Shown here: positions 13,298-18,951 of the stretch, piece after piece
Layout of the letters: each line of letters begins with the position of its first letter
Position numbering within the stretch: position 1 is the stretch's first letter
Assembly: GCA_949525845.1 (NCBI GenBank)
Contig: CATEPI010000006.1
Span: 33,917 to 97,916 of the forward strand
DNA: 64,000 nt
Origin: an uncultured Eubacteriales bacterium
Lineage (GTDB): Bacteria > Bacillota > Clostridia > Oscillospirales > Oscillospiraceae
Reading direction: 5' to 3'
Made by a program: the position numbers and the translations under genes
Notes under the pieces: generated by a model
Told to the model about the DNA's origin: nothing
Seen by the model: only the letters and a program-made list of their open reading frames with translations
Database searches by the model: none

Positions 13298-14176
13298 ATG
13301 GAGCTGAAAAATCTGCGGACCCTGCTGGCCGTGGTGGACCAGGGCAGCTACCAGAGAGCGGCGGAGCACCTGGGCTACACTCAGTCCACCATCACCGTGC
13401 AGATCCAGCAGCTGGAGGAGGAGCTGGGAGTCCCCCTCTTTCAGCGGGCGGGCCGGCGGATGGTACTCACCCCGGTGGGGGAGCAGGCCCTGGCCCAGGC
13501 CCGGGAGCTGCTGCTGGCCGCCGACCGGCTCTCTCAGCTGGGCCAGGCGGGGCGGGAGCCCCTGGGCACCCTGCGGGTGGACATGGCCGAGACCCTGCTG
13601 TGCTACCGGATGCAGCCAGTGATTCAGCAATTCCGCCGGCTGGCCCCCCAGGTCCGGCTTATCATCCGCAGCCGCAACTGCCTGCGCATCCCGGAAAACG
13701 TCCACACCGGGGCCTGCGACCTGGGGGTGGGCTACGACATGGACTGGAACCGGGAGACGCTGGAGGTGGAGTCTATGGGCCGCTACCCCATCGTCCTGCT
13801 GGCCTCGCCGGAGTTTGCCCACCCCGACTTCGTCACCCCCGGCCAGCGCAAGCCGGTTTCCCTTATCACCGACGAGCCGGACAGCCTTTTCCGCCGGAAT
13901 CTGGAGGACTACCTCCGCCGCCGGAGCATCACTCTGGACGCCACCCTGGAGCTGTGGAGCATTGAGACCATCAAGCGGTGTGCCATGTCCAACCTGGGCT
14001 TTACCTACCTGCCCCGGTTCGCCGCCCGGGAGGAGCTGGCCGACGGACGTCTGGTGGAGCTGGAGGCCCCCATCTCCGGGGTCCCGGCCCCCACCCTGTG
14101 CGCCTGGCGGAAAAACCGCTGGGTCACCCCGGCCATGGAGCTGTTTATGAATCTGCTCCGGGAGAGCATCTCCTAG
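13298..14176 (+). CDS. LysR-family regulator, divergent from the exporter
   Basis: GSYQRAAEHLGYTQSTITVQIQQLEEELGVPLF. Confidence 0.93.
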   Translation: MELKNLRTLLAVVDQGSYQRAAEHLGYTQSTITVQIQQLEEELGVPLFQRAGRRMVLTPVGEQALAQARELLLAADRLSQLGQAGREPLGTLRVDMAETLLCYRMQPVIQQFRRLAPQVRLIIRSRNCLRIPENVHTGACDLGVGYDMDWNRETLEVESMGRYPIVLLASPEFAHPDFVTPGQRKPVSLITDEPDSLFRRNLEDYLRRRSITLDATLELWSIETIKRCAMSNLGFTYLPRFAAREELADGRLVELEAPISGVPAPTLCAWRKNRWVTPAMELFMNLLRESIS

Positions 14177-14997
14177 CCGAACCGCCGGCGGAAGGGGGCG
14201 ATGTTGCCGTCCCGGCCGGGCCGCTCCAGAATGGAGAAGGTCACCGTCTCAAAGAGCCGGCCCCAGCCCTCCCCCTCCAGCAGCTCCTGCCAGAAGCGGG
14301 CCACATCCTCCGGGTCGTTGCGGAACACCCCGCAGCCGTAGGCCCCCAAAACCAGCTGGGCGCAGCCCCATTTGGCGAACAGGGCCAGAAGCTTCCGCAT
14401 CCGGCCCTTCATAACCGCCTTGGCCCGGTCTGCGCTGTCCCCGTTGCGCAGGACAATCCCCATGTTGACGGCGGGGGCGGTGATCACCGGGCAGGTGATG
14501 CTGTGCTCCGTCAGGGCGTAATCACTGGTGCGGAAGAAGGTGACGTCGCCAATGAGCATGGTGTCAGTGTACACCGGGTCCCGGTTGGCCCGGTTGATCT
14601 CGTAGTATCGGGGCCCCTGGCCGGTGGTCTGAGTGTGGTAGAGATTGGAGCAGAAGGCCAGGCACTCCTCCTGGGCCACCGAGCCGTTGAGAAAACCGCC
14701 CCCAGGATTTTTGGCGGAGGCGAAATTCAACACCCCGATCTTAGGGCAGAGGGTCTCCCCATCAGCCAGGCGGAAAATGGCGTCTACCGTCCCCTCGCCC
14801 CGGACCTCCAGGGCGGCGGCGGAGCCCTCCGCTGGAAGGACCGTCTCCTCCACCAGCTTATCCAGCGCCCCGGCGGTCCACAGCTCAGCAGGCCGGCAGG
14901 CGTCATACAGGATGACCTGACCGTTTACCGAATAGCGCCCCACCCGGCTGATTTCCACCGTCTCCTGGGCCAGGGCCTGAAGCTGTTCCTGGTTCAT
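14173..14997 (-). CDS. TIGR02452-family protein (microbial PARG-like macrodomain)
   Basis: LNFASAKNPGGGFLNGSVAQEECL, VITAPAVN, LVLGAYGCGVFRNDP. Confidence 0.88.
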   Translation of the reverse strand: MNQEQLQALAQETVEISRVGRYSVNGQVILYDACRPAELWTAGALDKLVEETVLPAEGSAAALEVRGEGTVDAIFRLADGETLCPKIGVLNFASAKNPGGGFLNGSVAQEECLAFCSNLYHTQTTGQGPRYYEINRANRDPVYTDTMLIGDVTFFRTSDYALTEHSITCPVITAPAVNMGIVLRNGDSADRAKAVMKGRMRKLLALFAKWGCAQLVLGAYGCGVFRNDPEDVARFWQELLEGEGWGRLFETVTFSILERPGRDGNIAPFRRRFG

Positions 14998-15880: not shown

Positions 15881-16686
15881 TTTTTGCTCAAACTCACCGT
15901 CTTCTCATAGGCGGCAATCACCGCCTCCATGGCGGCGGACCGGAAGCCGCCCTTCTCCAGGGCCCGGATGCCCTGGATGGTGGTGCCGCCGGGGGAACAG
16001 ACGGCGTCCTTCAAAGCGCCGGGGTGTTGGCCGCTCTCCAGCACCATCCGGGCCGCTCCGACGGCCATCTGGGCAGCGTAGGCCACGGCCTTGTCCCGGG
16101 GCAGGCCGCAGGCCACGCCGCCGTCGGCCAGAGCCTCCAGAAACAGGTAGGCGAAGGCGGGGCCGCAGCCGGACACCGCGCTGGCCGCGTCGATAAATCC
16201 CTCGGGCACCGGGTCCACCAGTCCGGCGGGGGCGATCAAGGCGGCAAAGGCGTCCAGCTCCTCCACCGTCGCCAGCTGGCCGCAGTACTGCACCACTCCG
16301 GCTCCGATGGCGGAGGGGGTGTTGGGCATGATGCGGATGACGGGGCAGTCCAGGTCTACCATATCCTGAATCCGGTCGCAGGTCAGGCCCGCCGCCATGG
16401 TGACCAGAATGAACCGGTCCTCCCGCTTGCGCAGGATGGGCTCCAGGGGGTCCAGCACCAGCTGCATCATCTGGGGCTTCACCCCTAAAAAGATGAGCTT
16501 GGCGGTGCGGGCGATCTCCTCGTTGGTGGACAGGACCGCGCCAGGCAGCTCTGCCGCCAGGGCCTCCGCCTTGGCGGGGGTGCGGTTGGACAGCAGGATG
16601 GTCTCGGCCAGCCCGCTCCGGGCCGCCGCCCGGGCCACGGCAGAGCCCATGTTTCCGGTGCCGATAAAGCCGATGGTTTGATACAT
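15877..16686 (-). CDS. proC: Pyrroline-5-carboxylate reductase
   Basis: GFIGTGNMG, RIMPNTP, SGCGPAF, VCSPGGTTIQG. Confidence 0.97.
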   Translation of the reverse strand: MYQTIGFIGTGNMGSAVARAAARSGLAETILLSNRTPAKAEALAAELPGAVLSTNEEIARTAKLIFLGVKPQMMQLVLDPLEPILRKREDRFILVTMAAGLTCDRIQDMVDLDCPVIRIMPNTPSAIGAGVVQYCGQLATVEELDAFAALIAPAGLVDPVPEGFIDAASAVSGCGPAFAYLFLEALADGGVACGLPRDKAVAYAAQMAVGAARMVLESGQHPGALKDAVCSPGGTTIQGIRALEKGGFRSAAMEAVIAAYEKTVSLSKK

Positions 16687-16707
16687 AATTGGTTCCTCCT
16701 CGTAAAA

Positions 16708-17205
16708 TCAGACAGGCGTGGTATTCTTCGCCCTGTATTTCCCGCAGCACGCCTCCAGGCGCTTGAAATTACAGCAAACCTTTTGATAAAACGGGTTGTT
16801 TCCGGCAACTGCCTTCTCATAGGTCTTTTGCGCCCTGGCAAAAATCAATGCCCGGTTCTTTTCACAATAGTCCAGCTGTTTCAGCAGCAGCGCCCGATAC
16901 CGCTCGTCCGGCTCTGCCAGAATGTCAAAATCCAACAGCTGATATTTATGTACCGGAATCATGTTGTTAAAGCCCATAATTCCCAGCGTCCCGCCATCCA
17001 GCTTCAGAACGGGACCGCCCGATTTCAGGTTGACATGGTTCGGCTTGGGAGACTCCAGTGGAACGTAATAATCGAAGCTCCCGATTTTCAGCACGATTCC
17101 CACATATGGCCGCCTCTGTCCCTTGTTATGCTGGACACGGTTGTCCATTTTATGGAGAAATTCAATATAATCCTCCCGGACATGGTAAAATCGCAGCCTG
17201 CCCAT
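16708..17205 (-). CDS. toxN: Type III TA toxin, ToxN/AbiQ family endoribonuclease
   Basis: FYHVREDYIEFL, RPYVGIVL, YYVPLESPK, MGFNNMIPV, CCNFKRLE; 165 aa, preceded by a terminator and repeats. Confidence 0.88.
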   Translation of the reverse strand: MGRLRFYHVREDYIEFLHKMDNRVQHNKGQRRPYVGIVLKIGSFDYYVPLESPKPNHVNLKSGGPVLKLDGGTLGIMGFNNMIPVHKYQLLDFDILAEPDERYRALLLKQLDYCEKNRALIFARAQKTYEKAVAGNNPFYQKVCCNFKRLEACCGKYRAKNTTPV

Positions 17206-17224
17206 ACGGCCTCCTTTGTAACAA

Positions 17225-17443
17225 GAAATGCGGGACAGCAAGGCCGTCCCGCATTTTTTCGTTCCCCACTTCCGGCAGGGGGTCGCCGCTTTTTTCGCCC
17301 TCTTAATTACGGACAGAGTTCACCGCTTTTTTCGCTCCCCACTCTTGCAGGCAGGTAGGGGCTCACCTCTTTGAGAAGCGCAGAGGCAGAGATGACGGGA
17401 CGTCAATCTCGTATCTGACAGAACAGGATTACCCCATTCTGCG
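17225..17443 (-). ncRNA. toxI: Putative ToxI/antiQ-type antitoxin RNA: 5' structured domain, three degenerate repeats, terminator
   Basis: Extended -10 TGcTATAAT (17449-17457); units at 17367-17325, 17324-17288 and 17287-17251, each GG(T/C)GA...stem...CGAAAAAA; terminator atgcgggac/gtcccgcat at about 17226-17257. Confidence 0.72.
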
Positions 17444-17638
17444 TTTTTATTATAGCAACATTGCATCGAAAATAGAATCCGCAATTTTTACGAACTTTCC
17501 CGGGGTTTCTTGTGGACTTTTTTGCACCAAATCTGTTTGCCTACAACATATTGTATTTTAACGCTGTTTCGTACCTAACATTAAGAAATCTTAATCAATT
17601 CTTAATTGTATTTCCCCCGCCGCTGTTATATACTGACC

Positions 17639-17657
17639 GTACTAATACAGTTAGTAC
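17639..17657 (+). promoter_or_regulatory. GntR (YtrA-type) operator
   Basis: GTACTA-N7-TAGTAC directly upstream of the gntR-ABC operon. Confidence 0.7.
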
Positions 17658-17678
17658 AGTATCCGGAAAGGAGGAGCT

Positions 17679-18056
17679 GTGATGTTGAATTTAGACTACC
17701 GGGACGCCCGGCCCATTTATGAGCAGGTGAAGGACGGTCTGCGGCGGCTGATGGTCACAGGGGTGATACAGGAGGGGGAGAAGCTCCCCTCGGTGCGCAC
17801 CATGGCCGGGTCGCTGGCCATCAACCCCAACACCATCCAGCGGGCCTACGAGGCCCTGGAGTCGGAGGGCTATGTCTACTCGGTGCCCGGGAAGGGCTCC
17901 TTCGCCGCCCCCAACACCGGGGTGGACGAGGGGCGCAAGCATGACCTGCTGCACACCTTCGACCAGACGGCGGGGGAACTGCTGTTCCTGGGGGTAAGCG
18001 GCGAGGAGCTTTGGGCCCGCGTCCGGGCGCTGGAAGGGGGAGAAACGAATGATTAA
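17679..18056 (+). CDS. GntR-family regulator (YtrA-like)
   Basis: PIYEQVKD, LPSVRTMA, INPNTIQRAY, PGKGSF. Confidence 0.93.
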   Translation: MMLNLDYRDARPIYEQVKDGLRRLMVTGVIQEGEKLPSVRTMAGSLAINPNTIQRAYEALESEGYVYSVPGKGSFAAPNTGVDEGRKHDLLHTFDQTAGELLFLGVSGEELWARVRALEGGETND

Positions 18057-18951
18057 GGTAATCAATGTGGTAAAGACCTTCGACGGCTTTCGCGCCCTGG
18101 ACGGTCTCACCATGACGGCGGAGAAGGGCTCCATCTACGGGCTGGTGGGCCCCAACGGGGCGGGCAAATCCACCATTCTGCGGCACATCATGGGCATTTA
18201 CCGGCCCGACTCCGGGTCGGTGCTGGTGGACGGGGATCAGGTCTACGAAAATCCGGCGGTAAAGGCCAGGATCGCCGCCATCCCCGACGAGCTGTACTAC
18301 TTCAACTCCGCCTCCACCCGGGATATGATGCGCTTTTACCGGGGGATGTACCCAAATTTCGACGCAAAGCGGTACGAGGCCCTGGCCGAGGCCTTCCCGG
18401 AGGTGGATGAAAAGCTGCCCATCCGGCGGCTGTCCAAGGGGATGCAGAAGCAGAGTGCCTTCCGGCTGGCCCTGTGCTGCAATCCGGATGTACTGGTCCT
18501 TGATGAGCCGGTGGACGGCCTGGACCCGGTGATGCGGCGGCAGGTGTGGTCCCTGCTCATGGGGGACGTGGCCCAGCGGGGGACCACCGTGCTGGTCAGC
18601 TCCCACAACCTGCGGGAGCTGGAGGACGTGTGCGACCATGTGGGCATCCTGTCCCACGGCAGGGTGCTGCTGGAGCGGTCCCTCACCGATTTGCAGGACA
18701 ACGTAGTGAAGCTTCAAATCGCCTTTGCCGACGGTAAGCTGCCCGAGCTGCCCCGTGACCTGAACGTGCTCCATACCTCTCAGATCGGGCGGGTGTTCAC
18801 CCTCATTGTCCGGGGCAGCCCGGCGGAGATTAAAACCCGCATGGCGGGCTTCGCCCCCATTCTCATGGAGGCCCTGCCCCTGACACTGGAGGAAATCTTT
18901 ATCTATGAACTGGGAGGTGAGGACTATGCGGTCCGCGACATCGTACTTTAA
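18049..18951 (+). CDS. ABC transporter ATP-binding protein
   Basis: GPNGAGKST, LSKGMQ, LVLDEPVDGLD, SSH. Confidence 0.95.
   Translation: MIKVINVVKTFDGFRALDGLTMTAEKGSIYGLVGPNGAGKSTILRHIMGIYRPDSGSVLVDGDQVYENPAVKARIAAIPDELYYFNSASTRDMMRFYRGMYPNFDAKRYEALAEAFPEVDEKLPIRRLSKGMQKQSAFRLALCCNPDVLVLDEPVDGLDPVMRRQVWSLLMGDVAQRGTTVLVSSHNLRELEDVCDHVGILSHGRVLLERSLTDLQDNVVKLQIAFADGKLPELPRDLNVLHTSQIGRVFTLIVRGSPAEIKTRMAGFAPILMEALPLTLEEIFIYELGGEDYAVRDIVL

Follow-up and report, generated by a model that had tools for sequence, protein, structure and literature searches.

Type III toxin–antitoxin modules of the ToxIN family combine an antitoxin RNA (ToxI) with an endoribonuclease (ToxN) that processes its own RNA precursor and then remains bound as a 3:3 triangle (PMC5086642, PMC8860590). 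Here, we examine such a locus in a stretch of DNA of 64,000 nucleotides (nt) from an uncultured Eubacteriales bacterium (GenBank assembly GCA_949525845.1, contig CATEPI010000006.1); this whole stretch is hereafter called the window and its first letter is position 1. The locus is a genuine, transcribed ToxIN-family type III module from a mouse-gut relative of Clostridium, of which all the parts, i.e., promoter, leader, three ToxI units, terminator, Shine-Dalgarno sequence and toxN, lie on the minus strand. That it is both a toxIN module and one in which three separately maintained units follow a conserved leader is, taken as a single claim, very probably correct.

Among the known systems, the closest solved toxin to the ToxN of the window belongs to ToxIN_Bt, from the Bacillus thuringiensis plasmid pAW63 (PDB 4ATO), in which a promoter, about three ToxI units, a terminator and toxN follow one another in the same order as here, while the units likewise end in A-runs (cleavage A/AAAA; PMC5086642). 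The copies of ToxI_Bt are also non-identical, with compensatory differences visible in the sequence; in other words, divergent ToxI copies are already known in a solved system. Unlike the locus of the window, ToxIN_Bt is plasmid-borne. Its units are of equal length (34 nt), which is why Tandem Repeats Finder (TRF) detects the array (locus L097, pAW63, positions 313–418: 34 nt × 3.1 copies, 75% matches, score 128), and the first of them begins only about 10 nt after the −10 element, hence the absence of a folded leader. The type system, ToxIN_Pa of Pectobacterium atrosepticum (PDB 2XDD), shares the ToxN fold, and its unit is a 36-nt pseudoknot, but it differs from the locus of the window by its 5.5 to 9.8 copies of 36 nt (98% matches, TRF score 671), by its cleavage site (AA/AU) and by its location on a Gram-negative plasmid. 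The sequence of ToxI_Pa presumably shares the GGUGA...UACC...UAAGU pattern with the units of the window. Two stems and three loops, as in these units, are the pattern described by Blower 2012 (PMC3401426). Finally, AbiQ/antiQ of Lactococcus lactis (PDB 4GLK) has a toxin of the same ToxN/AbiQ family and 2.8 repeats of 35 nt cleaved at A/AAA (PMC5086642), but these repeats are reported as near-identical, unlike ours. Having about three units is the norm in Firmicutes (2.9 and 2.8 repeats; PMC5086642).

Near-identity of the repeats also runs through the surveys of this family. Blower et al. 2012 (PMC3401426) relied on TRF to find toxIN loci, each of which entered their comparison as a single consensus repeat, while a recent study (PMC12283969, Sci Rep 2025) calls toxIN repeats ‘nearly identical’ and includes neither position-specific orthology, nor covariation analysis, nor a leader. 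For tenpIN, the latter study does report non-identical repeats (up to 35% variation) that are missed by TRF but may still form pseudoknots, and it raises the question of whether all the copies are functional; tenpIN differs from the locus of the window by its toxin family (TenpN) and by its two longer repeats. A sequence-only reading of the window had also started from near-identical ToxI repeats, a premise that holds for ToxI_Pa but not for ToxIN_Bt. Since ToxI_Bt is itself only 75% self-identical, near-identity reflects how these repeats are customarily described and is not required of them.

Three Unlike ToxI Units

The order promoter–RNA–terminator–toxN given by the sequence-only reading is indeed present, and the RNA carries tandem repeats in the 31–46 nt range directly upstream of the toxin gene and on the same strand. 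As that reading had noted, they are unequal in both length and sequence. Unit 1 (17327–17369, minus strand; 43 nt, GAGGUGAGCCCC...GAAAAAA) features a stem 1 AGGU/ACCU, a stem 2 CCCC/GGGG, a 12-nt loop between the stems and a 3′ A6 run. Unit 2 (17290–17326, minus strand; 37 nt, GCGGUGAACUCU...GAAAAAA) has CGG/CCG as stem 1 and CUCU/AGAG as stem 2, whereas unit 3 (17254–17289, minus strand; 36 nt, or 37 when counting one flanking base, GCGGCGACCCCC...GAAAAAA) has CGGC/GCCG and CCCC/GGGG, both ending in an A6 run as well. The junctions after units 1, 2 and 3 (J1–J3) are marked by runs of five to seven A. Pairwise identities among the three units are 0.63, 0.74 and 0.68, and a repeat-pair search recovers unit copies that are 71–76% identical at a spacing of 36–37 nt. 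These are not the (near-)identical repeats of the conventional description, and TRF reports no repeat in the region even at a score of 30, yet it finds both ToxI_Bt and ToxI_Pa, which bears out the expectation that repeat searches would miss such an array.

The motifs that the units had been said to have in common (e.g., GG(U/C)GA and the CCCC/GGGG-type stem) are all present, but the claim that the units share only these motifs is wrong: a further common stem is formed by N-G-G-N at unit positions 2–5, which pairs with N-C-C-N at positions 14–17. Because this stem 1 crosses the CCCC/GGGG-type stem, each of the three units forms an H-type pseudoknot. In a 45-column alignment of the units (A2), stem 1 corresponds to columns 2–5 with 14–17 and stem 2 to columns 9–12 with 31–34, the two stems crossing each other, while the loops measure 3, 1 and 5–13 nt. 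These dimensions are those of the hairpin-type pseudoknots of Blower 2012 (stems of 3–4 base pairs; loops of medium, 1–2 nt and variable length), in whose terms the long third loop of unit 1 is of the ‘Group II’ type, whereas the short one of units 2 and 3 is of the ‘Group I’ type. A unit covariance model (R3), trained on 139 distinct units from related loci (three of them from the window itself), matches exactly three contiguous sites in the 64 kb (E = 6.6e-6, 1.9e-4 and 2.5e-8 for units 1, 2 and 3, respectively), the next best match having E = 1. R3 does not recognise ToxI_Bt at E ≤ 0.1, and Rfam 15, searched with permissive thresholds over positions 16000–18500, returned nothing better than E = 1, the weak matches being to unrelated families.

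The related loci were obtained by scanning one genome per species, which yielded 80 loci, nearly all of them in genomes or metagenome-assembled genomes (MAGs) labelled as Clostridia or other Bacillota. Exactly three units ended by A-runs, spaced by 35–37 nt, are found in 58 loci (55 distinct arrays), with a ToxN at least 47% identical to that of the window. In the alignment of these units, 91.5% of the stem cells are paired (vs. 74.7% in shuffles) and the covariation score reaches 0.511 (vs. 0.177 when shuffled), a value attained by none of 500 shuffles, while controls with slid stems stay at or below 0.107. Stem 2 is paired at 99.1%, with covariation in all four pairs, and unit positions 2 and 17 form a C-G pair in 118 units, an A-U pair in 21, and are never unpaired. 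The conservation of structure with divergence of sequence that had been proposed from the window is therefore supported by pseudoknot covariation, at within-array identities of 0.63–0.74 in the window and with a median of 0.75 across arrays. Moreover, 157 of the 165 units have their nearest relative in another locus, generally at the same position of the array (48/55 arrays for unit 1, 41/55 for unit 2 and 49/55 for unit 3). In global alignments, identity to the orthologous unit amounts to 0.81–0.98 (unit 1), 0.73–0.95 (unit 2) and 0.81–0.97 (unit 3), so that the overall range for units (0.73–0.98) lies above the identity of toxN DNA between the same orthologous loci (0.65–0.80). Such position-specific orthology, along with a conservation exceeding that of toxN DNA, shows that the units are old paralogues that were kept separately, which is the opposite of decay. 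According to these alignments, the three units do not homogenise one another, each being under its own purifying selection and preserved through compensatory substitutions.

Other architectures occur among the relatives. In three loci (L027, L042 and L054), the same leader is followed by two units only. In L075, the leader reaches 117 nt, an additional hairpin being inserted in it, and the three units are nearly identical; the units of the L040 and L030 arrays are (almost) identical too. In a distant clade (L062–L080, ToxN 40–47% identical), the leader, about 250 nt ahead of toxN, has a single hairpin (GUAAUAUUGCAAAAUAUUAC), and the two or three units read AAGAGGAAAUCCCUAGCCU...AGGGUAU and are devoid of long A-runs. 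There, the middle unit has a hairpin insertion of about 20 nt in its third loop, like the Clostridium sp. HGF2 entry of Blower, which suggests that heterotypic arrays are general in this branch of the family. In the window itself, several sequencing runs carry a variant at position 17282 (G>T on the plus strand, i.e., C>A in the RNA, changing GCGGCGAC to GCGGCGAA), which falls in loop 1 of unit 3 and corresponds to the state of a 97%-identical relative.

At face value, the low identity within arrays and their invisibility to TRF could betray a decaying array, with one working unit and two degenerating remnants of once-identical repeats, and the sequence-only reading had itself envisaged an inactive toxin accompanied by decaying repeats. 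We regard decay as very improbable, given that all three units are more conserved between orthologues than toxN DNA, that compensatory changes keep the stems at all three positions, that the layout with three units is retained at ToxN identities as low as about 47%, and that position-specific orthology implies long-term maintenance, while the toxin is full-length and conserved. The same reading had also suggested that diverged units might neutralise several different toxins, an idea to which the differing pseudoknot cores and the known selectivity of ToxI–ToxN pairs (PMC5086642) lend some appeal; we hold it to be extremely improbable, since the 64-kb window contains one toxN only (no second ToxN was found in it), each related array directly precedes the toxN match through which its locus was retrieved, and all three units are most conserved in the single-stranded tails (GAAAAAAGCGG) that contact ToxN in solved complexes. 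Less improbable, though still rather unlikely, is the hypothesis that the divergence was selected, and not merely tolerated, as a means to avoid mispairing of stem 2 across units or recombinational deletion between direct repeats. Identical 5′ arms of stem 2 are indeed rarer in adjacent units (6/55 and 4/55 arrays) than in the non-adjacent units 1 and 3 (14/55), and the near-clade pattern CCCC, CUCU, CCCC follows the same trend; yet, when G-U pairs are allowed, the stem-2 arms of neighbours are cross-compatible in 39/55 and 21/55 arrays, and the arrays are phylogenetically related, so these counts are not independent. Identical units also exist in L040 and L030, and ToxI_Pa works with 98%-identical copies.

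A Two-Hairpin Leader Upstream of the Units

Between the promoter and unit 1 lies a leader of about 73 nt (17442–17370, minus strand), in which the minimum free energy (MFE) and centroid folds agree on two adjacent hairpins (z = −2.71). HP1 (17418–17442; GCAGAAUGGG / CCUGUUCUGU, loop GUAAU) starts at the 5′ end of the RNA. HP2 (17381–17417) is composed of an outer stem CAGA/UCUG and an inner stem GAGAU.UGACG / CGUCAUCUC, with UCC as its loop. The junction J0 between leader and unit 1 (17370–17380) is a pyrimidine-rich single-stranded tail (CGCUUCUC) followed by AAA; these three elements are all on the minus strand. When applied to the leaders of relatives, MAFFT followed by RNAalifold gave no structure, as the sequences of the leaders cannot be aligned with one another. 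Leader models were thus built from per-sequence folds combined by column voting, one for the far clade (R1) and one for the near clade (R2), the latter matching the window at 17366–17444 (59 bits, E = 2.5e-12).

In the near-clade alignment, 84% of the cells are paired and covariation is 0.363 (vs. 0.160 in shuffles), while it is 0.258 (vs. 0.149) for the far-clade leaders; none of 500 shuffles is as high in either case. Two-sided changes are seen in the relatives for all eight modelled pairs of HP1 and for most inner pairs of HP2. The two hairpins nevertheless differ in what is conserved: HP1 is kept as a structure only (identity to orthologues of 0.37–0.76), whereas HP2 is conserved in sequence (CAGAU...AUGAC/GUCAU...AUCUG; identity of 0.58–0.97), its outer stem being retained as such and its inner stem covarying, and a core GUGA..AUGAC/GUCAU..UCAC is common to the far clade. 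Every folded leader shows a hairpin about 6 nt after the −10 element and then a second folded element, with two tandem hairpins in nearly all of them. Beyond the hairpins, the tail is rich in pyrimidines (43% C and 34% U over 62 arrays, i.e., the 55 plus extras). In all 55 arrays, the number of A is 1–3 at J0, compared to 4–7 at J1–J3. The extra 5′ RNA domain announced by the sequence-only reading is thus real, with covariance models above shuffles in both clades, and these comparisons show that, in this Clostridia clade, the antitoxin RNA has a two-hairpin leader among its conserved parts. The possibility of a degenerate fourth unit was considered for the leader and rejected, the unit model R3 having no match in it.

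The fold of the 5′ domain proposed from the window fared less well as a whole, even though its components exist. It consisted of a single domain closed by CGCAGA/UCUGCG around a UGACG/CGUCA hairpin; the latter corresponds to the tip of HP2, and the six closing pairs can be formed in the window, with 72.9% of the cells pairable in 15 near-clade leaders (slid controls: 29–55%). However, this closing helix lacks covariation in the 15 relatives, none of its pairs showing a two-sided change, and 499 of 500 shuffles do as well; its pairing potential is due to HP1 and HP2 both beginning with CAGA. As the MFE and centroid folds choose two hairpins, and as those hairpins covary, we consider a closed domain, perhaps switching with the two-hairpin form, to be quite improbable. 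A role for the end of the leader as an anti-Shine-Dalgarno sequence, which would mask the ribosome-binding site of toxN in read-through transcripts, strikes us as improbable. Pyrimidines make up 77% of the leader tails, in which the sequence CACCUCCUUUC is frequent, and GCCUCU pairs with the toxN Shine-Dalgarno sequence in the full-length MFE fold of the window, but this pairing is found in 47% of the loci compared to 46% after shuffling of either the whole leader or the tail alone, and CCUCC is present in 10 of 62 tails only. We thus keep to a leader made of two tandem hairpins and a pyrimidine-rich tail.

Transcription and Termination

The RNA is preceded by an extended −10 promoter, TGcTATAAT (17449–17457, minus strand), which was read from the sequence and is accompanied by a weak −35 element (TTCTAT, about 17477–17472); the relatives, too, have a TATAAT-like box, equally distant from the first hairpin. 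Transcription starts at approximately 17442 (minus strand), 7 nt after the −10 element, a position that is based on contig ends and not on mapped 5′ ends. In the metatranscriptome X31, a 203-nt contig with a depth of 36.6 spans 17248–17442, one of its ends being within the terminator and the other 7 nt downstream of the −10 element, while the depth over toxN is zero; the contig of X30 (17255–17436) also corresponds to the antitoxin RNA. Read-through contigs that include toxN were recovered from X25 (17029–17430) and X26 (16688–17426). The upstream ends of the four contigs all fall just downstream of the −10 element (17442 in X31, 17436 in X30, 17430 in X25 and 17426 in X26). Therefore, the leader belongs to the RNA, the antitoxin RNA exceeds the toxin mRNA in abundance, and part of the precursor is uncleaved. 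One promoter yields an RNA of about 195 nt, composed of the leader, the three ToxI units and the terminator.

The intrinsic terminator (17220–17253, minus strand) consists of a hairpin (17253–17229) with the stem UGCGGGAC / GUCCCGCA, followed by a U-rich tract (17228–17220; UUUCUUGUU). It coincides with the inverted repeat I1 (17 nt, 88% complementary), and the A-run of unit 3 is able to lengthen its stem by pairing with the U tract. The contigs of X31 and X30 end within this element, a rho-independent terminator located between the repeats and the toxin gene and limiting toxin transcription. Downstream of it, the Shine-Dalgarno sequence of toxN (AAAGGAGG; 17210–17217, minus strand) was also read from the sequence.

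The Toxin

The gene toxN (16708–17205, minus strand) encodes a ToxN/AbiQ-family endoribonuclease toxin of 165 amino acids plus a stop codon. The protein matches Pfam PF13958 (ToxN_toxin) over the whole profile (positions 1–159 of 159, E = 2e-45), which, with the layout of the locus, establishes the type III, ToxIN-family assignment already made by the sequence-only reading. It does not belong to the CptN or TenpN families, since no Pfam family other than ToxN_toxin is matched at E ≤ 0.01. All four solved ToxN/AbiQ proteins are retrieved, ToxN_Bt being the closest (4ATO, E = 1e-22), along with AbiQ (4GLK, 7e-16), ToxN_Pa (2XD0, 2e-12) and ToxN_Ec (7D8O). We collected 447 homologues, of which every one listed carries PF13958 and the closest (97% identity) is annotated as ToxN/AbiQ in a Lawsonibacter MAG. 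Catalysis in ToxN_Pa/Ec involves K33, T52, S53 and K55 (PMC8860590), and S52 and K54 of the window align with S53 and K55, whereas K33 aligns with R32 and T52 with E51. All four positions are invariant or nearly so in the ToxN clade of the window.

Genomic Setting

The module forms an islet of low GC content, of about 0.95 kb, with around 50% GC between flanks at 63–69%. More finely, GC is 0.41–0.55 in the islet and 0.61–0.72 in the flanks (window 16690–17650), without any integrase beside the module. On one side is a GntR/ABC operon and on the other proC–proB, the same neighbours as in the 97%-identical relative, in what is a mouse-gut, Oscillospiraceae-like chromosome; the runs containing the toxIN sequence of the window are mostly mouse-gut metagenomes. 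From its composition and position, the islet resembles a short insert that reached the interval between the GntR/ABC operon and proC by horizontal transfer. The stop codon of toxN (16708) lies 22 nt upstream of the start of proC (16686), on the same strand and with no terminator seen in between, and the read-through contig of X26 ends at 16688, near that start. Farther away, at 14173–14997 (minus strand), is the counterpart of a 274-amino-acid gene that, beyond proB in the loci of relatives, has a PF10021 domain (microbial poly(ADP-ribose) glycohydrolase-like) and is unrelated to toxIN.

Some relatives (L088–L095, P0005–P0008; 74–77% identity) adjoin serine recombinase or phage integrase genes, with KilA-N, S24 peptidase (repressor-like) and SocA_Panacea genes nearby, a neighbourhood that suggests carriage on prophages or integrative elements. 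More distant toxN homologues include 4 phage records and 241 plasmid records. Together, mobile-gene neighbours and phage or plasmid records fit a mobile defence or addiction module.

Discussion

Compared to the systems described so far, three features are apparently new, as far as we have found. The first is the unequal length of the units, the array of the window mixing a ‘Group II’ unit with two ‘Group I’ units; the second is the position-specific orthology of the units across a large clade, and the third is the conserved two-hairpin leader.

By analogy with ToxIN_Bt and ToxIN_Pa, ToxN would cut the precursor in the A5–7 runs that follow units 1, 2 and 3, and the pseudoknots would then keep the bound toxin inactive in a closed 3:3 assembly, a single transcript supplying exactly the three RNAs of one triangle. 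Should the supply of antitoxin fail, for instance when a phage infects the cell or when the element is lost, the toxin set free would be expected to cut A-rich cellular or phage RNA. J0, on the other hand, never has an A-run, from which we infer that the leader probably is not cut off unit 1. Units 2 and 3 would thereby gain 5′-OH ends through ToxN cleavage, while unit 1 would retain the primary 5′ end. 5′-terminal stem-loops act as RNA stabilisers, and HP1, located at the extreme 5′ end, could shield the primary end from 5′-dependent decay. HP2 probably does something more specific, since it is conserved in sequence. That the leader stays fused to unit 1 and that the 5′ end is thereby protected is a joint proposal that we make tentatively and rate as somewhat less than even.

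Several observations weigh against our interpretation of the locus. Regarding the toxin, K33 of ToxN_Pa is replaced by R32 and T52 by E51, so the active site is not identical to the solved ones; AbiQ likewise lacks a Thr at the position equivalent to T52. The RNA data are assembled contigs, to which true ends and 36-nt processed products are invisible, and these contigs show the presence of some uncleaved precursor. Simple promoter and terminator scans of the locus flagged neither element, the promoter being missed by the consensus scan because of its poor −35 element. As for the leader, J0 has AAA in the near clade and might still be cut by an enzyme of the A/AAA type; furthermore, the host of ToxI_Bt has RNase J, yet ToxI_Bt is devoid of a leader hairpin, which indicates that a 5′ stabiliser is no general need. 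On this point, our leader comparison covers pAW63, while the stretch of pPA21A, the plasmid with ToxI_Pa, that was read lies wholly inside the 9.8-copy array.

Taken one step further, the three unlike units and the attached leader may be read jointly as a ring of three non-equivalent RNAs issued from one transcript, with unit 1 permanently bearing the leader and HP2 serving as a handle of the complex. We deem this combined reading unlikely. If it were true, HP2 could, for instance, be acted upon by a host factor, a phage factor or an RNase so as to trigger or tune the release of the toxin, and the order and identity of the units would matter for assembly.

Regarding the family at large, a large ToxIN branch of gut Clostridia uses three unlike, position-specific pseudoknots and a structured leader. 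As type III antitoxins are usually sought as near-identical tandem repeats, repeat-based surveys will under-count such loci; here, the toxin is named in public records while the RNA part is unannotated and has no Rfam match. The approximately 55 arrays can serve as a natural mutagenesis experiment on the features that ToxN requires of its partner RNA, and they raise the questions of the equivalence of the triangle positions, of the protection of a primary 5′ end relative to ToxN-cut ends and of the role of HP2. Finally, such modules are often located beside integrases on gut prophages or integrative elements, and they probably affect phage–host dynamics in the gut.

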